Of a DNA stretch of 64,000 nucleotides, positions 6,086-39,729 are shown piece by piece. This DNA is from Eubacteriales bacterium (GTDB lineage: Bacteria; Bacillota; Clostridia; Christensenellales; Aristaeellaceae). Under the pieces are notes generated by a model, which did not search any database, was not told where the DNA came from, and saw nothing but the letters and a program-made list of their open reading frames with translations. The DNA is taken from assembly GCA_028705775.1 (NCBI GenBank), contig JAQWCW010000003.1:14239-78238 (forward strand), given 5' to 3'. The number at the start of each line of letters is the position of its first letter. The first letter of the stretch is position 1. A program made the position numbers and the translations under genes.

Positions 6086-6649
6086 TTACTTACTTTTCTT
6101 GAGCTTATAAGCGGCGCGTGCATAAACGCAAAGGGCGCAAAGGCTGAGAGCGACGGCGGCAAGCAAAACCCAGAAATCAAGCTGAAAGCCCCATGCGGTA
6201 AACTCCGGATGGAAGAACGTGAGAACGATTGCAAGCATGAACGCGACAGTCGCCGCCTTGCCCGCCATTTTGGAGGCGATAACCTTTTCGCCCCTGAGAA
6301 GCAGCAAAGCGCCGCAGACCATCAGCAGCTCCTTGAAAAGCACGATTCCCACAAGCCATGGGTTCGCCCAGCCGCGCAGCGTGAGCGTTATCAGCACGGT
6401 AAGCACCATAATTTTGTCCGCAAGAGGGTCCATCAGCTTGCCGAAATTGGTTATAAGCCCGTTTTTTCTTGCGATATAGCCGTCCAGATAATCCGTGAAG
6501 CTTGCAATAAGGAAAACCGCGAGCGCCCATTTGTCAAGCCCCATATTAAACAGAATCAAATAAACGGGAATAAGAATTATTCGCATAATTGTGAGCGCGT
6601 TCGGAACGTTCCACATATCCTTCGTCAAATTCTTGAGTGCTTCCTTCAT
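6086..6649 (-). CDS. pgsA: CDP-diacylglycerol--glycerol-3-phosphate 3-phosphatidyltransferase
   Basis: CDP-alcohol phosphatidyltransferase signature DYLDGYIARKNGLITNFGKLMDPLADK. Multi-TM protein. Start moved to the internal ATG at 6649 (MKEALKNL), which has a GGAAGGAG RBS. Confidence 0.9.
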   Translation of the reverse strand: MKEALKNLTKDMWNVPNALTIMRIILIPVYLILFNMGLDKWALAVFLIASFTDYLDGYIARKNGLITNFGKLMDPLADKIMVLTVLITLTLRGWANPWLVGIVLFKELLMVCGALLLLRGEKVIASKMAGKAATVAFMLAIVLTFFHPEFTAWGFQLDFWVLLAAVALSLCALCVYARAAYKLKKSK

Positions 6650-18152: not shown

Positions 18153-18343
18153 GCGCGCAATCAGCCAAAGGGAAGCGCAAAGCTCTTTCAAAAATCTATA
18201 ATCTGATATATAATACGCGTATACAAGCCGGCATTGAATAGCTCTATCCGCAAAAGAGCGCGGGTAAATCGCATTCTGCCTTCCGTACCATTCGCAAGCA
18301 CGATTTAACGGCGTCTGACGAGTCGTCGGCGCGAAAGGATTAT

Positions 18344-21300
18344 ATGCAGCCGCAGAGGGTGAAAAACCAAAAAGCAAATACGGGAGAAAAGACGGCGCAC
18401 GGCGCAAGAATTCCGAAAATCCTTGTCGCGCCTATTTTGTCGTTCCTGCTAATCTTTGCGTCGATTGCGTTTACGGGCGTCGGCAACGTAAGGCACGCGA
18501 GCGAAACGGCGCGCGAAGTGCTTATGGCGTCCGCAAAGGAGCAGTCCTCCGTGCTTTCCGCAACATGGCGCGGGCAGGTTGACACGCTCGCCGCCGTTGC
18601 AATCGAGCTTGCGGAATACGATGAAATCAATATGGAAGCGGCGCTGAAAAGGCTTCTCCGCCTGCAGCGCGAGGGCGATTACAGCCGCCTCATGTTTTCC
18701 TTGGGCGACGGAATCGCGCATAGCGCAGACGGCTCTGTATTTGACATATCCTCGCGCGGCTACCTGAAGCGCGCAATGAGCGGAAAGTGGGCTGTCGAGC
18801 GCATTCCGGAAGGAATGGACGGAACGGGAAGCTTTATTGCGCTTGCCGTTCCTATAATAAAGGACGATAAGATTATCGGCGCCGTCGAGGGCATTTACGG
18901 CGAGGAGCGCCTTTCTAAGCTGATTATTCCGGAGGTGTTCGGCGGCGAGGCGTACTCCGTAATATGCAGGGAGGACGGAACGGTCTCCATTGAAACAGAA
19001 AATCCCAGCTTCGGCGGCGAGAATATGCTTGCGGTAATCGAGGAAGCGATGAACGGCAGGCAGGGCAGCTTTTCCGCAATCAGGGAGGACGTAGCAAGCG
19101 GGCGGCAGGGTACGTTCACCGTGCGCCTTTCGGGAAGAAAGCTCTACGCCGCATATGTTCCGCTCGACTCGCGCTCAGCCGGCGGCGAAAGGCTTATGCT
19201 TTTCAGCTTCGTTCCCGCAGCGCAGGTTGACGCGCCCGCAATAAGGCAGACCTATTACAACGTGCTTATGCTTATAACCGCGCTGGTCGGCGGCGCGATT
19301 ACCTTCATATGGCTGCTCAGGCATCAGAAAAAAACGGAGCTACGCCTTCGGGAGGAACGCGACCACCTGATGGTTATCGAAAAGCAGAACCGGATAACGA
19401 TGGAAAAATCTGGTCTGATTATGGCAAGATACGATTTGAAAACCGGCACGGTATGCGGCGAGTCCGCGCTTGTGTCGGCGCTAGGCTATCAGAGCGGGGT
19501 AATGCACACGCCGGATTCCTTTATTTCAGGCGGCGTTGTCGCGCCCGAAAGCATAGAGGAGCTGCGCAAATTCTACGCAAATCTCCGCGCCGGCAAGCTC
19601 GGAACAGCCGTAGTATCGCTCAAAACGCCCGACAGCGGCTTCCGCTGGTTCTCAATAGACGCGAGCTTTGCCGAGGATTCGGAGGGCAAGCCGTATCAGG
19701 CAATACTAATCATGCGCGACGTTACCGAAAAGCAGGAAAAGGAAGCGCTCTATCAGAACTGGCTCAAGACAATCCGGCAGAAGGACGTGCGGAGCTACTC
19801 GCTTTTCAGGTGCAATCTGAGCAAGGGCGACTCCTTCAGCGCGTCGGAGGGCAGCCTGCTTACCATCTGCTTCTCCCCGGGGCCGCACACCTTCAACGAG
19901 CGCACGGACGAATATGCGGGCAGGTTCGTTCACATTGACGATTACGACGCATACAAGGCGCTTCTGAACTCCGAAAACCTGCTTGCGAGCTATTATCGCG
20001 GCAAAACGAAGCATACAATGGAATACAGGGAAAACACGGGCGCGGAGAAATACCGCTGGCTTCGCGTTACAATCGAAACCCTGAAATACCCTGTCGGCGA
20101 CGATATCGAAGTGCTGCTGATGTACGACGATATCGACGAAAAAAAGCGCGCGGAGCTGAAGGAAAAGGAAAAGGCGTCCATCGACCCGATGACGGGCGTG
20201 CTGAACCGCTCCGCGTTCGTTGAGCGCCTTTCCGCAGTTTTCACGGATAAGGAAAAAACCTCATACGCCGTCATCCTAATCGACCTTGACGGCTTCAAGC
20301 AGATTAACGATTCGTTCGGGCACGCGGTGGGCGACCAAGCGCTTTACGAGGTCGGGCAGTCGCTTCTCTCCGTCGTTTCAAGCGGCGATATTCTGGGCAG
20401 AATCGGCGGCGACGAGTTCATGATTTTTGCCCGCGGAATCGAAAGCCAAGCCGTAGCGGAAAAGCGCGCAATTCAGATTCAGGCGCTTCTGCGCAGGGCG
20501 TACAGCCTTGACGTGAACCTTTCCGCGAGCATTGGAATCGCGTTTTACCCCTCGGACGGCAGCGATTTCAAAACGCTGTACCGCAATGCGGATATAGCGC
20601 TTTATGCCGCAAAGCAGAGCGGAAGGGATGCCTTCTCCTTCTATATAGGCGAAAATCCGCCGAATAGGCAAAGCGCCATATCGCCGGCAACTCAGCTGTA
20701 CCGCGGCAGCGAGAAGCGAAGAATTATTGTATACGAAAAGGACGAGGAAGTAATCGACGAGATTACGGGGCTGTACGCCGATAATTACAAAATCGAGATT
20801 TGCGAGGACGAGAGGGAGCTTCTTTACCGCCTGCGCAAGTACGGAATGGCGATTTCGGCAGTCCTTCTCAGCCTTGACGTTCAGGACACTGACGGCTTCT
20901 CCCTCCTTGCCGATTTGCGCAGAAACGATACCTCCGGCTCCGTTCCGATAGTTGTTATTAGCGCGGAGCGCGGGCAATGCGTTGCGGCGCTTCGCTGCGG
21001 CGCGCGCGATTATATACCAAAGCCAATAAACCGCGACGTGCTCAGGGCGCGCGTTGAGGCGGCGATTGCTCAGGTTGACAATGAGCGCCTGCGCGCGCAG
21101 AACGCGTATCTGCAAACGCAGAGCGGCGAGCGCTCCAAATACAGGACGGTTTTTGAAAACACGGGAACGCTCGTTGTGGAATACGACTGGCTCACCGGTG
21201 CCTTTACCTACGACCCCGATATGTCGCAGAAGATTTGCGGCAGATATGACTCGCGCTCGCTGTGGATGATTCTGCTTTCCGACATGGTTGCGGACGCGAT

Positions 21301-23194
21301 GGACGTAAAGCGCCTTCAGGAGTCGGTGCATGATTTGGCGACGGACAGAAAGGCGCAGAGCGCAAAGAAGGACGTTCGCCTGAAAACCCCCGACGGCTCC
21401 CGCCATTGGTTTGCCGTTACGATGTTCAAGCGCATAAACGAGCTGAAGCTGACCAGCCGGATTATAATGACCTTTGCCGACATAAACGACAACGTGCTGA
21501 CGGAGGACAGGCTTCGCTATCAGGCGGAGCATGACGCGCTTACGGGGCTTTACAACCGCAGCGCTTTCCTTGCCGCTGCCGAAATGGTGATTCGCACAGG
21601 CAGCGAAAACACCTATGTGCTTATGTGTACGGATATTGACAATTTCCGCTTCATCAACGAGCGCTTCGGACGGGACGAGGGCGACAGGCTGCTCAAATAC
21701 TCCGCTGAAAAGCTGCGCACGCATACGGAGAGCGTAAACGGGCTTGCGGGGCGCCTGAGCAACGACGTTTTCGCCATACTGGTCAGGAATACGCCGACCG
21801 TTTTCACAACCGCGGAGCAGATTATACTGAACTTCTTCAAGGACTATCCGCTCAAAACGAACCTGACCTGCCGCGTAGGCGCATATGTGATAAACGATAA
21901 GGAAATGACCGTCGACACGATGCTCGACCATGCCGCGACAGCAAAGGAATCAATACGCGGCAAGTACGGAAAGCGCCTTGCGCTTTTCGACGAGAGCATG
22001 AACGAGCAGGCGCTTCTGGAAAAAGACATAGCCGACCATATGGAGGCGGCGCTTGCGGAAAAGCAGTTCGAGGTTTACATTCAGCCGCAGTTCCATCACG
22101 CGAGCGGAGCAATCGTCGGCGCGGAGGCGCTTGTACGATGGCTGCGCCCCGACCGCGGTCTGGTATCCCCCGCCGCGTTCATTCCCGTGTTTGAAAAGAA
22201 CGGCTTTATCGTAAAGCTTGACGAATACGTATGGGAAAAAACCGCCGAGCTGATGAGCGAATGGATTCGCAAGGGCATGAATGTCGTCCCCGTATCGGTG
22301 AACGTATCGCGCGAGGACACAAAGGATTCCGAGCTTTGCGCGCGCCTGAGGCGGATAGTCGAAAAGCACAGTATTCCCAAGGATTTCTTCCGTATAGAAA
22401 TTACGGAAAGCCTTTTCGCGGACGACGCGGAGCGCCTGCGCACCGTTGTTGACGAGCTGCACGAAGCGGGCTTCCTTGTGGAAATGGACGATTTCGGAAG
22501 CGGCTATTCCTCGTTCAATATACTCAAGGATATTCCGGTTGACATACTCAAGCTCGATATGCGCTTCTTATCCGGCGAGGATAACCTCGGTCGCGGCGGA
22601 ATGATTGTCGGCGCGGTTCTGAGAATGTCGCGCTGGCTCGGAATACCCGTTATAGCGGAGGGCGTTGAGAAAAAGCATCAGGCGGATTCCCTTCTGAGCG
22701 TCGGCTGCCCGACAATTCAGGGCTACATCTATGAAAAACCGATGCCCGCAGAGGAATACGCAAAGCGCTTCCTTGAAAGCAACGCCGCGCGCGCCCTGCC
22801 TGAAAACAACATTGAAACGCAGCTTGACACGCACAGCTTCTGGGATTCCACCTCGCTCGACTCGCGCCTGTTCAACCTGTATATAGGGCCTGCCGCCGTG
22901 GTTGAATACCATATGGGCGAATATGAATTCCTGAGGATGAACAAGCGCTTCATGGATTTGATGATGATAGACGACAATGCGGCAATGCCCGCCTGCCTGC
23001 TCATGCGCTTTTCGCAGGAGGACAGACCGGCAATCAAGAGCGCGGTTCTCAGCCTTATCGAAACGGGCAAAGAAACGTCGTTCAGCGCGCGCGCCCATCT
23101 GAGCGACGGCAGCGAGAAGCGTCTCAGCGTCGCCCTGCGCCTGATTGCAAAGAGCGAGGACAGGGCGCTGATATTCGCCGCGCTGGATAAATAG
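18344..23194 (+). CDS. giant TM/Cache-like sensor-PAS-GGDEF-REC-PAS-like-GGDEF(degenerate)-EAL-PAS c-di-GMP signalling protein
   Basis: 1616-aa ORF. N-terminal TM helix, an extracytoplasmic Cache-like region, then a second TM. Intact RIGGDEF. Internal REC (LLSLDVQDTDG..IPKP). Degenerate RLSNDVF GGDEF. EAL motifs EALVRW, EITES, DDFGSGYSS, EGVE, QGY. Confidence 0.9.
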   Translation: MQPQRVKNQKANTGEKTAHGARIPKILVAPILSFLLIFASIAFTGVGNVRHASETAREVLMASAKEQSSVLSATWRGQVDTLAAVAIELAEYDEINMEAALKRLLRLQREGDYSRLMFSLGDGIAHSADGSVFDISSRGYLKRAMSGKWAVERIPEGMDGTGSFIALAVPIIKDDKIIGAVEGIYGEERLSKLIIPEVFGGEAYSVICREDGTVSIETENPSFGGENMLAVIEEAMNGRQGSFSAIREDVASGRQGTFTVRLSGRKLYAAYVPLDSRSAGGERLMLFSFVPAAQVDAPAIRQTYYNVLMLITALVGGAITFIWLLRHQKKTELRLREERDHLMVIEKQNRITMEKSGLIMARYDLKTGTVCGESALVSALGYQSGVMHTPDSFISGGVVAPESIEELRKFYANLRAGKLGTAVVSLKTPDSGFRWFSIDASFAEDSEGKPYQAILIMRDVTEKQEKEALYQNWLKTIRQKDVRSYSLFRCNLSKGDSFSASEGSLLTICFSPGPHTFNERTDEYAGRFVHIDDYDAYKALLNSENLLASYYRGKTKHTMEYRENTGAEKYRWLRVTIETLKYPVGDDIEVLLMYDDIDEKKRAELKEKEKASIDPMTGVLNRSAFVERLSAVFTDKEKTSYAVILIDLDGFKQINDSFGHAVGDQALYEVGQSLLSVVSSGDILGRIGGDEFMIFARGIESQAVAEKRAIQIQALLRRAYSLDVNLSASIGIAFYPSDGSDFKTLYRNADIALYAAKQSGRDAFSFYIGENPPNRQSAISPATQLYRGSEKRRIIVYEKDEEVIDEITGLYADNYKIEICEDERELLYRLRKYGMAISAVLLSLDVQDTDGFSLLADLRRNDTSGSVPIVVISAERGQCVAALRCGARDYIPKPINRDVLRARVEAAIAQVDNERLRAQNAYLQTQSGERSKYRTVFENTGTLVVEYDWLTGAFTYDPDMSQKICGRYDSRSLWMILLSDMVADAMDVKRLQESVHDLATDRKAQSAKKDVRLKTPDGSRHWFAVTMFKRINELKLTSRIIMTFADINDNVLTEDRLRYQAEHDALTGLYNRSAFLAAAEMVIRTGSENTYVLMCTDIDNFRFINERFGRDEGDRLLKYSAEKLRTHTESVNGLAGRLSNDVFAILVRNTPTVFTTAEQIILNFFKDYPLKTNLTCRVGAYVINDKEMTVDTMLDHAATAKESIRGKYGKRLALFDESMNEQALLEKDIADHMEAALAEKQFEVYIQPQFHHASGAIVGAEALVRWLRPDRGLVSPAAFIPVFEKNGFIVKLDEYVWEKTAELMSEWIRKGMNVVPVSVNVSREDTKDSELCARLRRIVEKHSIPKDFFRIEITESLFADDAERLRTVVDELHEAGFLVEMDDFGSGYSSFNILKDIPVDILKLDMRFLSGEDNLGRGGMIVGAVLRMSRWLGIPVIAEGVEKKHQADSLLSVGCPTIQGYIYEKPMPAEEYAKRFLESNAARALPENNIETQLDTHSFWDSTSLDSRLFNLYIGPAAVVEYHMGEYEFLRMNKRFMDLMMIDDNAAMPACLLMRFSQEDRPAIKSAVLSLIETGKETSFSARAHLSDGSEKRLSVALRLIAKSEDRALIFAALDK

Positions 23195-23211
23195 AAAGGA
23201 GCGTCGGTTTT

Positions 23212-23685
23212 TTGGATAAGCTTGAAATTTCAAGCCCCGCTTTTCAAAACGAGGGGCAGATTCCGATTAAGCACACGGGCTTCGGGGAGGATTTATCGCC
23301 GGAGCTTTACATAGGGAACCTGAGCGGGGACGCGGTTTCGCTCGCGGTAGTGATGGAGGATTTGGACGTTCCCTTCCTCAAAAGCTTTCCGCACTGGGTA
23401 ATCTGGAACATACCGCCGCTGGACGCGATTCCGGAGGGGGTTCCGGCAGGGAAAAAGGTTGATTCCCTTGGCGGAGCGGTTCAGGGCGCGGCGTTCGGCA
23501 AGAACTGTTACAGGGGCCCGAAGCAGCCGCCGTTCATAAAAAGCGCCCACAGGTATATGTTTTCCGTCTACGCGCTCGATATAAAGCTAAGCCTGCCGCC
23601 GACGGCGGGCAAGGACGGGCTTATGCGCGCAATGCTTTCCCATATCATTCAGGAAGGCAGCATAACGGGCGTTTACAAGCCCTGA
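23212..23685 (+). CDS. YbhB/YbcL family Raf-kinase-inhibitor-like (PEBP) protein
   Basis: 157 aa. TTG start 10 nt after an AAGGAG RBS. PEBP-like blocks HWVIWNIP and HRYMFSVYALD. Confidence 0.8.
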   Translation: MDKLEISSPAFQNEGQIPIKHTGFGEDLSPELYIGNLSGDAVSLAVVMEDLDVPFLKSFPHWVIWNIPPLDAIPEGVPAGKKVDSLGGAVQGAAFGKNCYRGPKQPPFIKSAHRYMFSVYALDIKLSLPPTAGKDGLMRAMLSHIIQEGSITGVYKP

Positions 23686-23708
23686 AAGCTGCAAAAGAAA
23701 GGCATATT

Positions 23709-24698
23709 ATGAAACCGGTAAAACTGCTGACGATTGCCGCGCTGGTTCTTGCGCTTGCTTTGCCGTGCGCCGCGCTTGCCTCAAACGCAACTGACACCTC
23801 CGCGTGGACGACGGAAACCTCCGATACCGCCTCGCACGCCTATCCGATGGGCAAGGGCGTAATCGAGCTTTTCGATTCATACACCTTTGAAACCGGCGTA
23901 ACGCGCGTAGGCGCGATGGACTATTATCTTTACGACCCGATTAAGCACGGAGCGCCCGCAGACAAGGAGTACCCGCTGATAATGATGCTTCACGGCTCAG
24001 GCAACGGCGGCGATAACGACAAGCTCTGCGGCGCTCTGACGGACTGGATGATTTACGCCTCAAGCGAGTACCAGAGCGCGCTTTCGGGCGCTTACATCCT
24101 GTTCCCCAAGGCGAACGAATATGATACAAGGCGCACAAAAACCGTATGCGATACGGAATATCTTTACAAGGGAACGGGCGACTGGATGACGAGCGCAAAG
24201 ATGACCTCCGTTTACTCGCCTGCCCTTTACGCGCTTGTCCAAAAGCTTAAAGCGGAGTATCCGATTTCAAGCCTTTCGGTTATCGGCAGCTCGGCAGGCG
24301 GCTATATGGCATGGCGCTTTGCAATCGACTATCCCGATTTGTGCGACAAAATCATTCCCGTAGCGCCCGCCTATGCCCCGAGCGAAAAGGAGCTGAAGCT
24401 TCTTGAGGATAACGGCGTCGGGATATGGGTTGTCCACGGCGAAAAGGACGCAAACTGCCCGCTCAAGCTGTTTACGGGCAAAATTGCCGACAGGCTTGAG
24501 CAAATGGAAAACGCGCGCGTGTCAATTCTGGACACGGTGCGCTTCGGGGACAGGCGCATAGTCAGAATAATCGTTGACGGAATGGATATGGGGCAGCATC
24601 TTGCGCAGTTTGCCGTCGGGCAGAATATGATTTATGCAGACGGCTTGCCCTATGACGAGCGCTATCCGGACGGAATTATCGCGTGGCTCGTCGAATAA
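23709..24698 (+). CDS. secreted alpha/beta-hydrolase (esterase/peptidase-like)
   Basis: Signal peptide MKPVKLLTIAALVLALALPCAALA. LHGSGNGG oxyanion-type block. Nucleophile elbow GSSAGG. Confidence 0.7.
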   Translation: MKPVKLLTIAALVLALALPCAALASNATDTSAWTTETSDTASHAYPMGKGVIELFDSYTFETGVTRVGAMDYYLYDPIKHGAPADKEYPLIMMLHGSGNGGDNDKLCGALTDWMIYASSEYQSALSGAYILFPKANEYDTRRTKTVCDTEYLYKGTGDWMTSAKMTSVYSPALYALVQKLKAEYPISSLSVIGSSAGGYMAWRFAIDYPDLCDKIIPVAPAYAPSEKELKLLEDNGVGIWVVHGEKDANCPLKLFTGKIADRLEQMENARVSILDTVRFGDRRIVRIIVDGMDMGQHLAQFAVGQNMIYADGLPYDERYPDGIIAWLVE

Positions 24699-24785
24699 AG
24701 GTGCTTCTGCGCCTGCCCACGCCGCGTTTTGCGCCGCGCAAGCCGGCGCTGTAACGGCTTTTCAGCAAATTTTTGCAGAAATTGA

Positions 24786-24814
24786 TTGCGTGAAAATAAA
24801 ATATCAGTTATAAT
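24786..24814 (+). promoter_or_regulatory. candidate sigma-A promoter ahead of the Hpt/CheB-CheR-kinase operon
   Basis: TTGCGT, 17 nt spacer, TATAAT. This leaves a leader of about 185 nt before the ATG at 25002. Confidence 0.4.
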
Positions 24815-25001
24815 AACTATGGATAAAAAGCGTAATACTGGATTTTTCTTTCCGCACAGGCGGGGAATTTGCCGTTTATATGGCTTTTTCCTCGATTCAG
24901 GGCGGAGTCAGGCGTGTTTCGGACACCGATTTTACGTTTACCAAAGCGCCTGCGTCAAAAGCGCAGGTCACACTTGAATATACGAGAGGAGTTCATTCCC
25001 G

Positions 25002-25382
25002 ATGACGCATGAGCAGCGTAAGGCGCTGGTTCGGATAGACACAGATATATCGGGAGTTGAGCGGCGCTTTTGCGGCGATGACGCGCTGTACATATCGTGC
25101 CTTAGCTTATTCCTCAGCGATTCAACGATGGAGCAGCTTACGAGGGCGCTCAGCCTTCGGCTGTGGGACGACGCGTTTACCGCCGCGCACGCGCTTAAAG
25201 GGCTTGCGGGCAATATGGGCTTCGTTCCGCTGATGCACTCCACGGGGCAGCTGGTCGCCCTGATTCGCGGAGGCAGAACCCTTGAAATCAGCGACGCGCT
25301 TCTGCGCGTCAGAATGGACTACGCGGAAATAACCGATGTAATAAATCAAAACTTCATATGCGCGATTACCGAAGGAGAGTAG
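25002..25382 (+). CDS. stand-alone Hpt domain protein
   Basis: 126 aa. Motif AFTAAHALKGLAGNMG. Paralogue of the 8847-9218 gene. TAG stop. Confidence 0.85.
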   Translation: MTHEQRKALVRIDTDISGVERRFCGDDALYISCLSLFLSDSTMEQLTRALSLRLWDDAFTAAHALKGLAGNMGFVPLMHSTGQLVALIRGGRTLEISDALLRVRMDYAEITDVINQNFICAITEGE

Positions 25383-25387
25383 CGAAA

Positions 25388-28300
25388 ATGAAAAACGATG
25401 GACTAAAGCACGGATATAAATACATTGTCGGAATAGGCGCGTCTGCGGGCGGGCTTGAGGCGCTGCAAAAGCTGCTGAGCGCGCTGCCCTCCAACACGGG
25501 CTTCCCCTTCATCGTGATTCAGCACCTCTCTCCCGATTATAAAAGCCTGCTCGGTGAAATACTGGGCAAGTACACGGATATGCCCGTTATTCAGGCGGAG
25601 GATAACATGACGGTGCTGCCCAACCGCGTGCATATCATTCAGCCGGGAAAGAATATGCGGATAGAAAGCGGAAGGCTCAAGCTGGTTGACCAGATTCCGA
25701 AGGAGCTTAACCTGCCTATCGACATTTTCTTCCGCTCCCTTGCCGAGGACGCGGGCACAAACGCAATCGCAATAGTCCTTTCCGGCACAGGCTCTGACGG
25801 AACGAACGGAATCAAGTCAATCAAGGAAAACGAGGGAATGGTTCTCGTTCAGGATTTGGAAACGGCAAAGTTCGACGGAATGCCGCGCTCCGCTATGCGG
25901 ACGGGGCTTGTTGACGCGCAGCTTTCCCCTGAGGAAATAGCGATAGAGCTTGAGCATATTTCCGGACTTCCGCTTGCGGCGGAGCGCGGCAAAACGCTTC
26001 AGGAGATTGACGCGGAGCTGATGCGAAAGGTTTACGCCGTTCTCAAAAAGGTCAGCAACGTTAATTTCACGCATTATAAGCAGACGACAATCCTGCGCCG
26101 GATGGAGCGCAGAATGATGATAACGCATAAGGAGCAGCTCTCCGACTATGTGGACTACCTGCTCGAATCGCCCGAGGAGGTTCGGGTGCTTTCCAAGGAG
26201 GTTCTGATTGGCGTTACGAGCTTCTTCCGTGACCCTGATTATTTCCAGCTTTTGAAGGACAAGGCGATAACAGATATAGTCAGCCGCTCGCAGGGCGAGG
26301 AGCCGATTCGCGTATGGGTCGCCGGCTGCTCGACGGGCGAGGAGGCGTACTCAATCGCCATCCTTTTCAGCGAGGTAATGGATAGCATGAAGCTCAAGCG
26401 CGAGCTTAAAATCTTCGCTACCGACCTTGACACGGAGGCGATAACGACCGCGAGCAAGGGGCTTTACGGCGACAATATCGTGGACGCGGTTTCCCCCTCG
26501 CGCCTCAGCAAGTATTTCACGCGCAAGAACAACGCATATCTTGTGAACCGCGAAATACGCAAAATGATAGTTTTTTCTCCACACAACGTGTTTCAGGACC
26601 CGCCGTTTGGCAGGCTTGACATGATTTCGTGCCGCAATATGCTCATATATTTCCAGCCCGTCCTGCAAAACGACCTTTTCGCAATTTTCCATCAGGCGCT
26701 CAAGGACGGCGGATACCTGTTCCTAGGCAAGTCCGAGGCAATCGGCTCATACACGGACGCCTTCCCCATCGTCGACGCGGCGACAAAGATTTTCGGGCAT
26801 TGCGCCGACGCGAAAATTGCCGGCTCAAAGAAGGTTCCGTACCTGCAGACGACCTATATGGACGAGGAGCTTTCGGGCGATTCGGGGCTTTCAGCCTTCT
26901 CGCTTCAAATGCGCAGCGAGCGCTCCGCCGAGTCGTCGGCAGTATCAATCGATAACTCAATCCTTGAGCAGTTCCTGCCCGCAACGGTTGTAATAAACGA
27001 GAAAAATGAGCTTATACACACCTACGGCGACACCTCGAACGTAATGCATTTCTCCCTCGGAAGATATTCGAGCAATCTTTTCGATTTGATAACGGAGGCG
27101 CTGAAAATACCCGTTTCCACGCTTCTTAAGGAATCGCGCGACAAGAAGCGAAAGGCGCAGTACAGGGACATCCGCTTTACGGGCGAAAGGGAGAACTCCG
27201 TAATCGACCTTACCGTTGCCCCCGCGAGCCATAATAACAGCGTATCCGAAAACCTGTACGCAATCGTGTTTGCGCAGACGCGGCAGGATAAAGCCGATAC
27301 GGACTCCGTTGTGTACGACGTCGACAGGGTTTCCTCGCAGCGCATAACGGATTTGGAGCAGGAGCTGGTTGAAAAGCAGACGAAGCTTGACCAGAGCGTA
27401 TCCGAGCAGGAAACGGTTAACGAGGAATTGCAGGCGGCGAACGAGGAGCTGCTTACCGCAAACGAGGAGCTGCAAAGCTCCAATGAGGAGCTGCAATCCG
27501 TAAACGAGGAGCTGTACACGGTCAACTCCGAATATCAGCAGAAGCTGACGGAGCTTTCCGATTTGAACGACGATATCGCAAACTTCCTTTCCTCAACGCT
27601 CACGGGCATAATTTTCGTAGACAACAAGCTCAACATCCGCCGCTATACGGATTATGTAACCTCCGAATTCTCCGTTATGGACCATGATATAGGCCGCTCG
27701 CTCGCCTTTATTTCCTATCATTTCCCTGCGGTTGATATAACGGAAATATGCACGAACGTGCTTAAAACGCTGATTCCCAACGAGCGGGAAATAACGACGA
27801 ACAGCGGCAAATCCTTCTTCATGCGCGTCGCGCCGTACCGCTCGACGGAAAACAAAATTCTCGGCTGCGTAATAACCCTTATGGATATTACGAAGCAGAA
27901 GCAGAATCAGGAAAGCCTGCTCAGCACGGAAAAGCGCCTTTCAATGGCGCAGCAGGCAAGCGACGCAAAGAGCGATTACCTCTCGCGCATCGCCCACGAA
28001 ATCCACTCGCCGATGACCTCGCTTATGGGGCTTGTCAGGAACGCCCGCGCGCTCGCAACCGACGACGCGCAGAAGGCGGAAATCGACAAGATTGCCCAGA
28101 CAATCGACTATATGACCTCAATCGTCACGGATATTTCCGAAGCGTCCGTATGCGAGCGTCTTTCCAAGGAGCAGATTACCGAGCCGTTCGTTTTGCGCGA
28201 TATGCTGGAAAGCGTGAGCGAGGCGGTGCGCCCCAAGCTTGACGAGGCAGGCGTTTCCTATAAGCTGCTGCTTGACGAGGGCTTCAACCCCTCCTATATC

Positions 28301-29086
28301 GGCAGCAGGGCGAAGCTGCAGCAGATTCTGCTCGGCTTCCTCAGCTCCTCCCTCCGCCATACCGAAAAGGGCGACTCGATTACGCTTCGCGTGTTTGAGG
28401 AACTGGGGCGGAGCGAAAAGGCAAAGCTGTGCCTTATCGTTTCCGACACGGGCAGCTATATAAAAAAGGAAAACCTCGACAAGCTTTTCAAGCCGTTTTC
28501 CGATATCGCGGAGGAAAACAGAACGCCGAGCAACGCATGGCTCGGGCTTTCCACCGCGTATAACGAAATCATATCACTGGGCGGCAGCGTAAGCGCAAAA
28601 AGCGAGGAAGGCAAGGGCAGCACCTTTACAATCACCGTGCTTCTGGACAGGCAGACGGAGGCGGACAAGGAGCAGAGGGAGCAGGCGTTCAGCAATAATC
28701 TTTCGGGCAAAAACGTGCTGATTGCCGAGGACAACGCGCTGAACCGCACAATCTTGGGCGCGCTTATCAAAAACGAGGGAATGACCTACGCGGAGGCGCA
28801 GGACGGAGAGGAAGCCGTGAAGAAATTCACGGACGAGCCTGCCGGAACCTTCGACTGCATACTGATGGACATGAGAATGCCGAAGCTTGACGGAATCCGC
28901 GCAACGGCGAAGATTCGCGCAAGCGGCAAGCCGGACGCGAAAACCGTACCGATTATCGGCGTTTCCGCAAACGGCTTTGTGGACGATATAAGAAAAGCGC
29001 AGGACGCGGGAGTCAACGAATACACAACGAAACCGATTTACCGCGAAAATCTGCTTACCGCAATAAGGAAGCTGATTAAGCGCTGA
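25388..29086 (+). CDS. CheB methylesterase-CheR methyltransferase-coiled coil-PAS-HisKA-HATPase-REC hybrid sensor kinase
   Basis: CheB block GASAGGLEALQ..VIQHL..LSGTGSDG. CheR block FFRDPDYF..VWVAGCSTGEEAYS..FATDLD. Heptad segment EELQAANEELLTANEELQSSNEELQSVNEEL. H-box DYLSRIAHEIHSPM. G-box GKGSTFTI. C-terminal REC (LMDMRMPKLDG..TKP). ATG at 25388 follows a GAAGGAGAG RBS. Confidence 0.9.
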   Translation: MKNDGLKHGYKYIVGIGASAGGLEALQKLLSALPSNTGFPFIVIQHLSPDYKSLLGEILGKYTDMPVIQAEDNMTVLPNRVHIIQPGKNMRIESGRLKLVDQIPKELNLPIDIFFRSLAEDAGTNAIAIVLSGTGSDGTNGIKSIKENEGMVLVQDLETAKFDGMPRSAMRTGLVDAQLSPEEIAIELEHISGLPLAAERGKTLQEIDAELMRKVYAVLKKVSNVNFTHYKQTTILRRMERRMMITHKEQLSDYVDYLLESPEEVRVLSKEVLIGVTSFFRDPDYFQLLKDKAITDIVSRSQGEEPIRVWVAGCSTGEEAYSIAILFSEVMDSMKLKRELKIFATDLDTEAITTASKGLYGDNIVDAVSPSRLSKYFTRKNNAYLVNREIRKMIVFSPHNVFQDPPFGRLDMISCRNMLIYFQPVLQNDLFAIFHQALKDGGYLFLGKSEAIGSYTDAFPIVDAATKIFGHCADAKIAGSKKVPYLQTTYMDEELSGDSGLSAFSLQMRSERSAESSAVSIDNSILEQFLPATVVINEKNELIHTYGDTSNVMHFSLGRYSSNLFDLITEALKIPVSTLLKESRDKKRKAQYRDIRFTGERENSVIDLTVAPASHNNSVSENLYAIVFAQTRQDKADTDSVVYDVDRVSSQRITDLEQELVEKQTKLDQSVSEQETVNEELQAANEELLTANEELQSSNEELQSVNEELYTVNSEYQQKLTELSDLNDDIANFLSSTLTGIIFVDNKLNIRRYTDYVTSEFSVMDHDIGRSLAFISYHFPAVDITEICTNVLKTLIPNEREITTNSGKSFFMRVAPYRSTENKILGCVITLMDITKQKQNQESLLSTEKRLSMAQQASDAKSDYLSRIAHEIHSPMTSLMGLVRNARALATDDAQKAEIDKIAQTIDYMTSIVTDISEASVCERLSKEQITEPFVLRDMLESVSEAVRPKLDEAGVSYKLLLDEGFNPSYIGSRAKLQQILLGFLSSSLRHTEKGDSITLRVFEELGRSEKAKLCLIVSDTGSYIKKENLDKLFKPFSDIAEENRTPSNAWLGLSTAYNEIISLGGSVSAKSEEGKGSTFTITVLLDRQTEADKEQREQAFSNNLSGKNVLIAEDNALNRTILGALIKNEGMTYAEAQDGEEAVKKFTDEPAGTFDCILMDMRMPKLDGIRATAKIRASGKPDAKTVPIIGVSANGFVDDIRKAQDAGVNEYTTKPIYRENLLTAIRKLIKR

Positions 29087-29101
29087 TTGGGAGGACGCAG
29101 T

Positions 29102-29461
29102 ATGGACGCAGTAATGCTTGCGGAATACGGAATAGACTACGAGAAGGCGCTTGGCAGCTGCATGGGCAACGAAGCGTTCCTGCGCAAGATTCTGACCATG
29201 TATCTTGACGACGTAAGCTTCGGAACGGCTGAAAGCGCGTTTAAGAAGCGCGACTGCGCCGCGCTGTTTTTAGCCGTGCATGAGCTGAAGGGCGTTGCGG
29301 GCAACGCGGGCTTTGTGGGACTTTACGCCGCGGTTCTGCCGCTTGTTGAGCTTACGCGCTCGGGAAAATGCGACTGGAACAAGGCGACAGAGCTGTTTGA
29401 AAATCTCAAGAAGGCGTACGAGCGCACGATAGCGGGAATACTGCGCTCAATTCCCGAATAA
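29102..29461 (+). CDS. stand-alone Hpt domain protein
   Basis: 119 aa from the ATG at 29102 (GGGAGGA RBS). Motif LFLAVHELKGVAGNAG. Starts 16 nt after the kinase stop. Confidence 0.8.
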   Translation: MDAVMLAEYGIDYEKALGSCMGNEAFLRKILTMYLDDVSFGTAESAFKKRDCAALFLAVHELKGVAGNAGFVGLYAAVLPLVELTRSGKCDWNKATELFENLKKAYERTIAGILRSIPE

Positions 29462-29549: not shown

Positions 29550-30929
29550 ATGAATATCAAAAAATTGTCCCTGCTCGCGCTTATCGCGGCGCTTATTCTG
29601 GCAATCTCAGGCTGCACGGGAAACGTACCGAAAGCTCCGGAAGTAACCGCCGAGCCGATTACGATTACCGTTGCGGGCGGCTGGGAGGATTGCCGCGCAA
29701 TCGACGAGGTGGCGCGCAAGTTTACCGAAAAGTATCCGAACTGCACGGTGCGCTATGAGTACCTTCAGGATTACAACAACTCGCTTGTAAAGCGCATGAC
29801 GGGCGACAGCCCTGTCGACGTGTTCTTTACGTCGAATATTCAGGCGGATTCGCCGCTTCTTCCGTATGCGCTCAACCTCAACGGGCGGGAGGATTTGAAT
29901 CTTACAGACGTGTTTTACGGGCTGACGCAGAATTTCACCTTCCGCGAGAACGGCGAAATATCCGATAGGCTTTACGCAGTGCCGGTCGGCGCGGATATGC
30001 GCGGGCTTTTCGTCAATAAAACGCTGCTTGCCTCGCTCGGGCTTACCGTTCCTGCCAATAAGGCGTCGCTGCTTAACGCCTGCAAGGTTCTCAAGGAAAA
30101 CGGCTATATGCCGCTGCAGGGCAATCCCAATGATTTTTAGCAGACGCTGCTTTATCCGTGGGTCTGCAATATCATCGTCAACTCGCCAAAGGAGGCGGGC
30201 GTGCGCGAGGCGGTCGAAAAGCGCTCAGCCGGCATAAGCGAGCTTTTCCGCGAGCCGTTTGAGCTTATGTACACGATTGTCGAAAACGATTATTACAACT
30301 ATAAGCACGAGCAGGACGTAAACGGGCTGTTCGTTGACAGCGCCGATATTGATTACGCCCGCTATTTCCTCAACATAAAGAAAACGGACAGCGGCTATGA
30401 AAAGGCGGACGATGTCGGCGTTATCGCCTTCATGCCCTCCCCGATGTCGCGCACAAGCGTAATGGAAAAAGCGCGCGAGGACTACCACAGCAATATTGAA
30501 TATGTGTTCATTGCCGCGCCTGTCAGCGACGAGGGCGGCTTTGCATACCTTTCCCCCGGTCACGGGCTTGCAATCAACAAGGAGTCCCCGAACGTCGATT
30601 GGGGCGTCCGCTTCATGGATTTCCTCTTTCAGCCGGAAAACAGCGAGCTTTTCGCAAGCGAGTTCCACACAATCCCGAACACGAAGAACGCGGTTTCCTA
30701 CATCCGCAAGCTTTTCGACGTTCCGGACAACCGCATTTCCGAGCTGGGTCAGGTTACGTTCGGCTATGATTTCTACAAGCCAATCACCACAACCCTGCGC
30801 GATATTTCAAAGGGCAACAACCCGAAATATATGCAGACAGCCGAGGACGGCTCCGTATCCCTCTACCCGCTTGACTACTACATGAATCAGCTAGAGGAAA
30901 GTTTGAAATCAGATGAGCAACAGCAGTAA
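29550..30929 (+). pseudogene. ABC-type extracellular solute-binding lipoprotein (family 1) interrupted by a single in-frame TAG at 30138-30140
   Basis: Lipobox LILAISGC. ORFs 29550-30140 and 30201-30929 share one frame. The 20 codons between them are open (QTLLYPWVCNIIVNSPKEAG). No other disruption. Confidence 0.8.
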
Positions 30930-33525
30930 TAAACCCGAAATAAAAGAACGGCTGCATAAGCGCGGGCAGGGGCTTATTGTAATAATCCTCAACCTGGTTC
31001 TGCTTTCGTGCGCGATTCTCTTTTACACAATGTACACGAGCGCGTACGAAAAGCGGCTGAACGATGAGAATTTAGGCAATATAGCCAACATGAACCGCTC
31101 CGCTGCAATGAACGCTACGGCGCTGATTGAGAGCATGAACATAAAGCTCGACGATTTGGCGCAGTACGTCAAAAAGCACGCCCTCGACCTTGAGGGCGCG
31201 CTTGAAATGATTGACGACGCGAACTCAAGCAGCGAAAGGTATTTCGAGCTAATCGGGTAGGACGCGAAGGGCTATCTTGCCGAGCGCGGCGAGGACGGGC
31301 TTTTCCCGCAGCTTGATTATTCCCACACTTCCTATGCGCCGCTGCAAAGGATTTTCAAGGAAGAATATCCGGACGGAATCGGCAAAATCCGCTTTGCGCC
31401 GGAATACACTGACGGCGGAAGAAGCGCCGAAAAATTCTTCGCAATATACAGGCGCATAATAATCAAGGACGGCGATAAGGACGTTCCCTACACTATTATG
31501 CTCGCAACGAGAGCAAAAAGCGTGCTAGAGGTGCTTAACGCGCAGGACGATTATCTGGGTCAGTCCACAGTGCTTATCGACGACGCGGGCAACTATATCG
31601 TCAGCAACATCGACTTCAAGTCGAGCAACTTCTTCCAGTACCTGTATGTGTACAACAACCTGTCGATGGACAAGCGCAACGCGATAATAAACGAAGTGAA
31701 GGAAAAAGGCGCGGGCGAATTGTACTACAAGAATTCAGGCAACAAGATAGAGGACTGCGTTTACCGCTACGAAAGGATTGAGAACAGCGGCTGGTACTGC
31801 ATAACCGCCATTCCGCTTTCCTCCTTCCACTCCCCCGTGTTCAACATGAGCTATGCAATTTATGCCGTAGCCGCGCTGCTTCTGCTCCTGCTGACGGATT
31901 TGCTGTGGCTGCAGGGAATGAACCGCCGCCTCCGCGTGAGTATGCTCAGGGAAAAGGAAGCGAGCGCCGCAAAAGGCAGCTTCATGTCCCGTATGTCGCA
32001 TGAAATACGCACTCCGCTAAACGCGGTAATAGGCTACAACACGATTGCGCGCAACGAAATGAGCGACGCAAACGACGACGCGTCGCGCAGGCAGGCGGAG
32101 ATGAAGGTGCTGGACTGCCTTACAAAGAGCGATATCGCGTCAAGGCATCTGCTGACGATAATCAACGACGTTCTGGATATGTCCGCAATCGAAAGCGGTA
32201 AGATTAAGGTTTCCGTTGAGCGCTTCGATTTCAAGGGGCTGATAAGCTCAATAACCACCATTTTCTATTCGCAGGCGCGCGCAAAGGGCGTCGAGCTTGA
32301 GGTTGTGTTTGACGCGCTTACCGAGGAATGGTATATGGGCGACCAGCTCAGGGTAAACCAAGTGCTGACAAACCTGCTTTCAAACGCAATCAAGTTCACT
32401 CCGGAGGGCGGAAAAGTAAGGCTCACAATCAGCCTTGCGGAAAACTCCGAAAAGAAGGCGCGCATTCACTTTGCCGTGTCCGATACGGGAATCGGAATGA
32501 CAAAGGAATACCTCAGCCACATCTTCGTGCCGTTTGAGCAGGCGGATTCCTCAATCTCGCGGCGCTTCGGCGGAACGGGGCTTGGGCTTTCCATAACAAA
32601 GAACCTGATTGACCTTATGCACGGAACAATCGAAGTTTCGAGCGAGCCGAGCAAGGGCTCACAGTTTGACGTTGAGCTGACCTTCGGGCGCACGGCGCAG
32701 CCCTCGCAGGAGGAAGCCTACGATTTCAGCTATATCAAGGCGCTCGTTGTGGACGACGACGCAAGCACCCGCGATTACATCAAGCTGCTGTTCGGGCGCT
32801 GCGGCGCAAGATGCTCCGCCGTCGCTTCGGGCGACGCGGCTGTGGACGCTTTCAAGGCGGCGCAGGCGATGGGCGAAAGCTATACAATGTGCCTTGTGGA
32901 CTGGCGTATGCCGCAAATGGACGGAATCGACACAATCAAGCGTCTGCGCGAGGTTTCGGAAAAGGATATACCAATCGTGGTGCTTACGGCATACGATTAC
33001 TCGGAGCTTGCGGAAAAAGCGGAGGACGTTGGCATAAAGAAGTTCATCGCAAAGCCGCTTTTCCAGTCAACGCTCTTTGACCTGCTCGCCAATCTTTCGG
33101 GCGGAAAAGCTCACCTTAACCTGCAAAAGAACAAGGTGTACGATTTCAAGGGTCGGCGCGTGCTGCTTGCCGAGGACAACGCAATGAACATGGAAATAGC
33201 CAAAAAAATAATGGAGTCCGCGGGTCTTAACGTTGACGAGGCATGGAACGGGCGCGAGGCTGTTGAAAAGTTCAAGGCGGCGCAGGCGGGCTATTATATG
33301 GCAATACTGATGGACGTGCATATGCCGGAAATGAACGGGCATGACGCGGCGCGGACAATCCGCGCAATGGAGCATCCCGAAGCAAAAACGATTCCCATAA
33401 TCGCAATGACAGCGGACGCGTTTGCCGAAAACGTTGCCGAGGCAAAGGCGGCGGGAATGAACGAGCATATCGCAAAGCCAATCGACATTCCGACGCTGTT
33501 TTCCACTTTGAGCAGATATGCGTGA
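30913..33525 (+). pseudogene. TM/Cache-like sensor hybrid histidine kinase with two C-terminal REC domains, interrupted by a single in-frame TAG at 31258-31260
   Basis: ORFs 30913-31260 and 31498-33525 share one frame, and 31261-31497 is open (DAKGYLAERGEDGLF...). H-box SHEIRTPLNAVIGY. N/G boxes LSNAIKFT and GGTGLGLSI. REC1 has VDWRMPQMDG..AKP. REC2 has LMDVHMPEMNG..AKP. The start overlaps the SBP gene by 17 nt. Confidence 0.8.
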
Positions 33526-38214: not shown

Positions 38215-39729
38215 TCATTGACGATTGTCGTCGTCGTCCTGCCGCTCGGATGGATAAACCGGCGCCCTGAACGCGCTCTCGCGGTCAACAGGCGGCGGCA
38301 GGGTATCAAGCCCCGGCATTTCCGCCTCGTCCATCATAAGGCGCTCGATAATCCGCTTCCCCCAGCCCTCGCCCTTGCGCTTTGCGCTCTGCCTGCGCCC
38401 TGCCCTGCGCGGGCCGGACACGAGCGGAACCTGCGCTCCGTCGCCCGAAACCCTGCCCCTGTATACATAGCCGCCCGATGGCTGATTCGGCGCGTATCCG
38501 TACCCGTCATCGACAGGCTGTACGGCGTTATATCCGTACCCGTCATCGACAGGCTGTACGGCGTTATATCCGTACCCGTCATCGACTGGCTGTACGGCGT
38601 TATATCCGTACCCATCATCGGCTGGCTGTACTGCGTTATATCCGTACCCGTCATCGACAGGCTGTACGGCGTTATATCCGTACCCGTCATCGACTGGCTG
38701 ATTTACGCCGATACCAAAGCTGCCGACAGGCGCATTGGTAAAGCCGTCGTCAACCGGCGTATCGGAGTACGGCTGCTGATAATCGTAATCCTGCGGCGCA
38801 AATTCGTCCTGCCTGCTTTGCGCGGCAGACGGAGCATACTGCGCGGTTTGCTCGTACTGCTCAGGCTGAATGTACTGCGTCGGCTGACCGTACTGCTCAG
38901 GCTGAATGTACTGCGTCGGCTGACCGTATTGCTCAGGCTGAATATACTGCGTCGGCTGCGCGTACAGGGCGGTGTCCCCGTAGCCCGAATCGGACGCGCC
39001 ATCATCCGCCGCCGTATTTTCCGCATATCCGCCGAGCGTTTCATTGCCGTAGGGCGCGGGCGAAACGCCGTTTTGTATATCGCCGCGGTTATATGCCTTT
39101 TCACGGCGAAGCCTTCCGGCCGCATAGCGGCGCGTTCCGTTCTCCTCGCCGCCTTCCTCCGCGGGAGTCTGATATGCTCTGGTTTCCCCGCCGCTGTAAG
39201 CGTACTGCTCCTGCGGCAAAGCGGGAGCCCCGCGTTTCCAGTCAGGAGGCGGCATATACGCCGTATAATCGGCAGGCGGGAAGGGCGAAGCCTCGGCGTA
39301 AACGTTCGTTTCCTGCCGCGCAGGCCCGCTGTACCTGCCCGAAAGCCGCCTCGTTTCCTGCCCGCCGTCATAATTCACGTCCGGAATGCGCGTCCCGACG
39401 CGCGTTTCAGAGCTTACGGTTCCGCGCGGCGAAGCGCCCGCAAAGGCAATTCCCGCAACGGGAGTATCGCCGCTCAGCTCTTTTCTGTGGAAAATTCGCC
39501 GCAGCTTGCTCGCCCAGACCTTGTACGGTCTCCAGCGAAGCATCCATATTACAAAGTCAATCACCGCGCCCGCGGCTATCAGAACAATAGCGATAATCTT
39601 CCAGTTTTGCAGTATAAAACTGAGCGCGCCGTGACCGGACGTATCGGAAAACAGCGAAACAAACCAGTTCGCGGCGCTCTGCGTCCATCCGAGAAGGATA
39701 TTCAGAAGAAAGTTAACAAATCCGTTCAT
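38215..39729 (-). CDS. membrane-anchored protein with Tyr/Gly/Asp/Gln-rich tandem repeats, function unknown
   Basis: 504 aa. Two N-terminal TM segments, then a low-complexity region with 3x PTQYIQPEQYGQ and 6x NAVQPVDDGYGY. GGAGTGA RBS. 8-nt gap after cdaR. Confidence 0.7.
   Translation of the reverse strand: MNGFVNFLLNILLGWTQSAANWFVSLFSDTSGHGALSFILQNWKIIAIVLIAAGAVIDFVIWMLRWRPYKVWASKLRRIFHRKELSGDTPVAGIAFAGASPRGTVSSETRVGTRIPDVNYDGGQETRRLSGRYSGPARQETNVYAEASPFPPADYTAYMPPPDWKRGAPALPQEQYAYSGGETRAYQTPAEEGGEENGTRRYAAGRLRREKAYNRGDIQNGVSPAPYGNETLGGYAENTAADDGASDSGYGDTALYAQPTQYIQPEQYGQPTQYIQPEQYGQPTQYIQPEQYEQTAQYAPSAAQSRQDEFAPQDYDYQQPYSDTPVDDGFTNAPVGSFGIGVNQPVDDGYGYNAVQPVDDGYGYNAVQPADDGYGYNAVQPVDDGYGYNAVQPVDDGYGYNAVQPVDDGYGYAPNQPSGGYVYRGRVSGDGAQVPLVSGPRRAGRRQSAKRKGEGWGKRIIERLMMDEAEMPGLDTLPPPVDRESAFRAPVYPSERQDDDDNRQ
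38495..38710. repeat. in-frame 36-bp tandem repeat, 6 units, inside the membrane protein gene
   Basis: Unit TATCCGTACCCGTCATCGACAGGCTGTACGGCGTTA with very few substitutions. Encodes NAVQPVDDGYGY on the minus strand. Confidence 0.9.
38854..38960. repeat. in-frame 36-bp tandem repeat, about 3 units, inside the membrane protein gene
   Basis: Unit GTACTGCTCAGGCTGAATGTACTGCGTCGGCTGACC. Encodes PTQYIQPEQYGQ on the minus strand. Confidence 0.9.

Follow-up and report, generated by a model that had tools for sequence, protein, structure and literature searches.

An in-frame amber codon in a solute-binding lipoprotein gene, probably a recent and still polymorphic nonsense mutation, beside an interrupted sensor kinase gene

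Introduction

Recent unitary pseudogenes are null alleles that go back to a single nonsense mutation and that still segregate. As at the locus described here, one substitution-type stop interrupts a gene of which sister strains and all relatives have an intact copy. An in-frame UAG within an otherwise intact gene is also what pyrrolysine decoding gives in Bacillota and Deltaproteobacteria, and the organism studied here is likewise of the Clostridia type. A third group of related systems is that of the binding-protein-dependent sensor kinases, with LuxP-LuxQ, TorT-TorS and ChvE-VirA as examples. In these, as here, the gene of an extracytoplasmic solute-binding protein (SBP) adjoins and overlaps that of a membrane-bound hybrid histidine kinase whose extracytoplasmic domain is large. 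LuxP, TorT and ChvE are of a different fold class from the family-1 SBPs (SBP_bac_1/8, carbohydrate type).

We have analysed an SBP-kinase gene pair of an uncultured "Eubacteriales bacterium." The term window is used for the whole 64-kb stretch of DNA that was analysed, and coordinates refer to it unless another sequence is named. A preliminary description of this DNA had noted a single in-frame TAG in the SBP gene, for which it had offered three explanations: a very recent nonsense mutation, a base-call error, or read-through or recoding of amber.

Results

The SBP gene is interrupted by a single in-frame TAG

The SBP gene contains the following features.

29550..30929, + strand: 459-codon gene of a solute-binding lipoprotein (SBP_bac_1 / SBP_bac_8), with an interruption at codon 197; assigned by translation, Pfam, full-length homologs and the intact 459-aa allele of sister strains (NCBI MDD2648006.1)
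29550..29615, + strand: signal peptide and lipobox (LAISG/C, Cys22), read from the translation; the hydrophobic segment spans residues 1-27
30138..30140, + strand: derived amber codon TAG; the ancestral or alternative allele is TCG (Ser), base 30139 (A vs. C) being the only difference
30201..30929, + strand: downstream remnant open reading frame (ORF), 242 aa, C-lobe of the SBP; "hypothetical protein" in NCBI metagenome-assembled genomes (MAGs)

Translated straight through, positions 29550-30929 gave 459 codons with a single stop, codon 197, which is followed by QTLLYPWVCNIIVNSPKEAG. The codons at 30129-30149 read AAT GAT TTT TAG CAG ACG CTG, in agreement with the preliminary description. The two ORFs that it had placed in one frame (29550-30140, 196 aa, and 30201-30929, 242 aa, starting 651 nt apart) do share that frame, and the rest of the frame past the TAG is free of other lesions.

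The joined SBP sequence matched SBP_bac_1 (PF01547) with 56.2 bits, against a cut-off of 26, and SBP_bac_8 (PF13416) with 44.4 bits, against a cut-off of 27. The latter match covered residues 54-382 and thereby ran across the TAG and over both lobes. More than 100 full-length SBP homologs, of 455-470 aa, covered 98-100% of the joined sequence, including both of its halves. With profile matches above the curated threshold, both lobes covered and a lipobox at the N-terminus (ISG/C, Cys22), the two ORFs proved to belong to a single family-1 SBP, as had been claimed.

With the stop at residue 197 of 459, the entire C-lobe is lost, and judging from the sequence such a truncation would lead to loss of function. 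A perfect AGGAGG is found 6 nt 5' of GTG 30201 (30185-30203, + strand), within the SBP frame and just past the TAG. This motif could permit the restart of a signal-less C-lobe fragment; it is probably an accident of the KEAG codons.

The adjoining kinase gene carries a second amber codon

The gene downstream of the SBP gene was found to carry a lesion of the same type, 1120 bp away, which had also been pointed out before.

30913..33525, + strand: hybrid histidine kinase gene, 870 codons, interrupted at codon 116; assigned by translation, Pfam, hydrophobic segments and intact catalytic motifs
31258..31260, + strand: second amber codon, which falls within the extracytoplasmic sensor domain and is shared by all recorded copies of the locus
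31498..33525, + strand: downstream remnant ORF of the kinase, with 675 aa if it starts at ATG 31498 and 667 aa if it starts at GTG 31522; TM1 and the first ~195 residues are missing

The kinase gene, which shares 17 nt with the 3' end of the SBP gene, encodes a first transmembrane segment (TM1, 30961-31041), an extracytoplasmic sensor domain in which Pfam gave no match, a second transmembrane segment (TM2, 31831-31923), HisKA, HATPase_c and two receiver domains, and the catalytic motifs are all intact. The stop at codon 116 parts TM1 from the remainder of the protein, and no clear Shine-Dalgarno sequence precedes the starts of the remnant ORF. The SBP-kinase pair has no genes of an ABC permease or ATPase next to it, and the SBP is presumed to be the sensing partner of the kinase.

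Upstream of the pair lies a signalling cluster (18300-29461, + strand), which contains the gene of a PAS/GGDEF/REC/GGDEF/EAL protein of ~1630 aa as well as the following genes.

25002..25382, + strand: Hpt protein
25358..29086, + strand: 1242-aa CheB-CheR-PAS-HisKA-HATPase-REC fusion
29087..29461, + strand: second Hpt-like ORF, whose product with the start used here is not on record, as gene callers set another start

The presence of such a dense cluster upstream suggests that the broken module fed a larger phosphorelay.

The SBP TAG belongs to one of two haplotypes

An exact-product look-up of the downstream ORF of the kinase returned four near-identical contigs, which we have compared with the window base by base: ENA ERZ27298659 (L038), ENA ERZ27298658 (L040), Logan SRR22315502 (L039) and Logan SRR22315503 (L041, the same contig as L001). 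Consecutive accession numbers suggest that a single study produced all the copies, and "all copies" hence refers to this population and not to the species.

At the SBP site, TAG was present in the window and in Logan SRR22315502 and SRR22315503, and these two contigs showed a single difference from the window, at the synonymous site 31905. The site was TCG (Ser) in ENA ERZ27298659 and ERZ27298658, where the SBP is called as a single 459-aa gene. Over 10-17 kb, the ENA contigs differed from the window at 10-12 sites (~99.9% identity). One of these was 30139 (A to C), the single base by which the sister strains differ at this codon, so that the lesion is a substitution and not an indel, as the preliminary description had it. 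The remaining differences, some synonymous and others not, fell in six other genes.

A cluster look-up added three NCBI MAGs, all named "Eubacteriales bacterium." The SBP was intact in one of them (MDD2648006.1) and split into 196 + 242 aa in the other two (MDD3881042/3 and MDD4511888/9). The kinase was split into 115 aa + 675 aa in all three, and its codon at 31258 was TAG in the five near-identical sequences as well as in the three MAGs. The deposited "ABC transporter substrate-binding protein" and "hypothetical protein" are the two halves of a single gene that was broken recently, and the deposited fragments of the kinase are to be read in the same way.

Since the evidence at 30139 is a single-base difference between assemblies of possibly related samples, we have considered that it might stem from a sequencing or assembly error, the true base being C everywhere. 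Against this, the TAG was seen not only in the window but also in two Logan assemblies, each of a different run, and in two distinct NCBI MAGs. It was also linked to ~9 SNPs over 17 kb, synonymous and non-synonymous, which split the haplotypes alike in each assembly. These ~9 linked SNPs are common to both ENA contigs, which argues for two real haplotypes, and the TAG travels with its haplotype, as a random error would not. The base-call error proposed in the preliminary description is thus very unlikely.

Two further differences between the sequences were noted. Codon 18 of the kinase, next to TM1 (30964, + strand), is Gly (GGG) in the window and Trp (TGG) in the ENA contigs, a non-conservative difference that would fit relaxed constraint but is a single case. 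The two haplotypes, TAG and TCG, also differ, not by SNPs alone but through indels or copy number too, in a gene of unassigned function and without a Pfam match on record (38215-39729, - strand). This gene holds two 36-bp tandem arrays that encode 12-aa repeats, one at 38495-38700 (5.7 copies) and the other at 38853-38965 (3.1 copies).

The species was found neither among the GTDB representative genomes nor in the JGI metagenomes, the latter searched with two codon-degenerate patterns spanning each TAG. A literature search on the run, assembly and protein accessions returned no paper.

Orthologs carry ordinary residues at both TAG columns

The preliminary description had suggested that orthologous SBPs be aligned to see which residue occupies the TAG column. 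In 39 aligned orthologs this residue was Ala (14), Gly (13), Ser (11) or Thr (1), and the sister strains, too, carry an ordinary sense codon. The closest other species (L002), with 70% amino acid identity in the SBP and 65% in the kinase, has TCG (Ser) at the SBP column. As TCG is common to the sister strains of the window and to the nearest other species, it is the ancestral codon and TAG was derived from it by a C-to-A transversion. The SBP site hence combines a sense codon in very close relatives, a stop that is not conserved and a one-step path from TCG to TAG, all of which are expected of a segregating null allele. Among the explanations offered earlier, it is the very recent nonsense mutation that is borne out by TCG (Ser) at this codon in near-identical sister strains.

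The adjacency of the SBP and kinase genes is kept in 36 related loci (from GTDB genomes, for the most part MAGs of uncultured Oscillospiraceae and Lachnospiraceae), in which a kinase homolog lies directly downstream, and in ~30 of these 36 loci the kinase match crosses the TAG column unbroken. The residues found there in the relatives are S/R/G/A/T and other sense residues. In L002 the codon corresponding to 31258 is CGG (Arg), two steps from TAG, and no intact close allele of the kinase is on record. No stop codon was present at the SBP or the kinase TAG column among the relatives examined. Both columns are variable, which indicates that neither is a special functional site.

Stops within the SBP matches of two related loci were set aside as irrelevant, one being the natural gene end (L006) and the other a TGA in the signal-peptide linker (L012). 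In the latter, the Lachnospiraceae MAG CAZNAP010000034.1, the in-frame TGA of the SBP homolog is at position 6094, just after the lipobox, and may mean that the start is mis-set, that the gene is a pseudogene or that the assembly is in error.

TAG is used as an ordinary stop codon in the window

If amber were read through or recoded, be it as pyrrolysine, with the help of a suppressor tRNA or in a programmed manner, both genes could still give full-length products. Two adjacent genes with one TAG each and no other lesion would be compatible with this, as would the presence of the kinase TAG in every copy seen. However, sister strains have an ordinary TCG in place of the SBP TAG, and the two ortholog columns, devoid of stops, vary among small or polar residues. 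We have therefore looked at TAG usage and at RNA structure with this explanation in mind.

The frames of the window were re-called with only TAA and TGA as stops, and coding potential was scored by a codon-usage model trained on the window. Among its ~40 genes, 19 end with TGA, 17 with TAA and four with TAG. The TAG-terminated genes are the following.

23192: GGDEF/EAL protein
25380: Hpt protein
33546: YpsA-like protein
58548: fourth TAG-terminated gene

The next gene begins 20 nt past TAG 23192 in another frame, so that read-through there would run into it. Every other TAG inside a long frame, those of the SBP and kinase genes aside, was inspected and found to lie upstream of likely start codons, and no conserved gene of the 64-kb window other than the SBP and kinase genes has an internal TAG. 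Within these 64 kb, TAG terminates genes and in-frame TAGs are not frequent, which is not the picture expected of genome-wide amber reassignment. The window contained no tRNA genes (and hence no tRNA-CUA), no pyl genes and no Rfam family at gathering score.

A second stop follows closely in three of the four TAG-terminated genes, with an in-frame TGA 3-6 codons past the TAG at 25380, 33546 and 58548, and this might be taken as a backup-stop signature in support of read-through. The next in-frame stop lay 3, 4, 6 and 40 codons after the TAG terminators (n = 4). After TAA and TGA, the medians were 10-12 codons, and the distance was 5 codons or less in 8 of 36 genes. We have rejected the signature, as it concerns four genes only and these are not distinguishable from the TAA and TGA genes.

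The 120 nt downstream of the SBP and kinase TAGs were compared with shuffled sequences and gave z = +1.44 and -0.67, respectively, neither of them significant. No downstream structure was seen at the SBP TAG (76th percentile). Starting 6 nt past the kinase TAG, there is a 16-bp hairpin (31266-31305, + strand, -22.6 kcal/mol), which would be in favor of read-through and is among the top 0.75% of 50-nt coding windows when the 50-nt window is picked, as it was, after the structure had been seen. Yet, when the same Gly/Ala/Arg/Glu-rich peptide is recoded synonymously, the hairpin ranks only at the 5.5th percentile, equally stable folds occur at three other places in the kinase gene, and it is not formed in the corresponding L002 region. 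The hairpin is at chance level and is explained by the GC-rich codons of the peptide.

That both lesions are amber codons is itself unremarkable. We have enumerated all single-base changes in both genes, with transition:transversion weights of 1 to 4, and TAG made up 52-64% of the possible nonsense outcomes because G-ending codons are favoured. The chance of both lesions being TAG is ~0.3, and paired in-frame amber codons need not, as a caution, imply recoding.

With TAG terminating four genes of the window, no stop in the orthologs, no other internal TAG in these 64 kb and no significant structure, the amber read-through or recoding raised in the preliminary description appears very improbable. 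We see just as little chance of a milder form of it, in which read-through of amber, or a suppressor tRNA encoded elsewhere in the genome and not recognised as such, would allow low or conditional expression of the kinase and, in the TAG haplotype, of the SBP. Such a reading would draw on the kinase TAG in every copy seen, on the 49 family-invariant residues that the 870-codon gene has all kept and on the hairpin behind its TAG.

Both lesions are young and the kinase was probably hit first

At family-invariant positions, the window SBP showed no deviation (0/20) and neither did the kinase (0/49), which is no worse than intact relatives in a leave-one-out baseline. Together with the intact catalytic motifs, this supported that both lesions are young. 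All copies share the kinase TAG and only one haplotype has the SBP TAG, so that the kinase lesion is probably the older one. From this allele distribution we infer that the kinase was hit first and the SBP second, with relaxed selection as the link between the two events, and the pattern fits the stepwise decay of one sensor module.

Loss of the module may alternatively have been adaptive, its inactivation being favoured in the sampled habitat and the null alleles of the kinase and then of the SBP rising by selection. The mechanism is plain nonsense mutation here as well, and only the evolutionary force differs. Such a history would account for two independent nulls in one module within a very short time, in genes that are otherwise undamaged, and for the TAG haplotype being the commoner one on record (3/5 DNA sequences and 2/3 NCBI MAGs). 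However, a second knock-out in the SBP would gain little if the kinase was already dead, and mutation alone would suffice to give one nonsense change among 12 SNPs over 17 kb. We thus regard selection for the loss as conceivable but unlikely.

Discussion

The best explanation of the SBP TAG is a recent nonsense mutation (Ser TCG to TAG) under the standard genetic code, giving a null allele that is still polymorphic and that probably followed the lesion of the kinase. We estimate the probability of this reading at about 0.88. The SBP case is one of ordinary gene decay.

According to the proposed course of events, the kinase would have been knocked out first, which would have left the SBP without its partner and under relaxed selection, and the nonsense mutation in the SBP gene would then have arisen in one lineage. 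A C-to-A transversion at 30139 changed TCG (Ser) to TAG and created a null allele of the lipoprotein solute-binding sensor partner. This allele is still segregating, closely related strains of the uncultured "Eubacteriales bacterium" population carrying either TCG or TAG. Standard termination at the SBP TAG would yield a 196-residue N-lobe fragment, and a C-lobe fragment restarted at GTG 30201 would be devoid of a signal peptide, so that no functional binding protein would be made. Apart from this, both genes are undamaged, as both events are very young. The locus may thus serve as a small example of a two-gene sensor module early in decay, in which intact and null alleles of one partner coexist.

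The comparison with known systems agrees with the reading of a recent nonsense mutation. Unlike the UAG codons decoded as pyrrolysine, the one described here is not conserved in orthologs and alternates with the Ser codon TCG, and the gene is not that of a methylamine methyltransferase. The two interrupted genes encode proteins of the SBP_bac_1 and HisKA/HATPase_c families, neither of them a methylamine methyltransferase, with no ortholog stop at either column. In the window there are no pyl genes or tRNA-CUA that could serve such decoding, nor is there a significant PYLIS-like structure. The resemblance is to recent unitary pseudogenes, in which, as here, other lesions are absent and a functionally linked neighbour gene is also struck. 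Nothing essential distinguishes the present case from them; the one mild curiosity is that both lesions are amber, which is the likeliest outcome under the codon usage of this genome.
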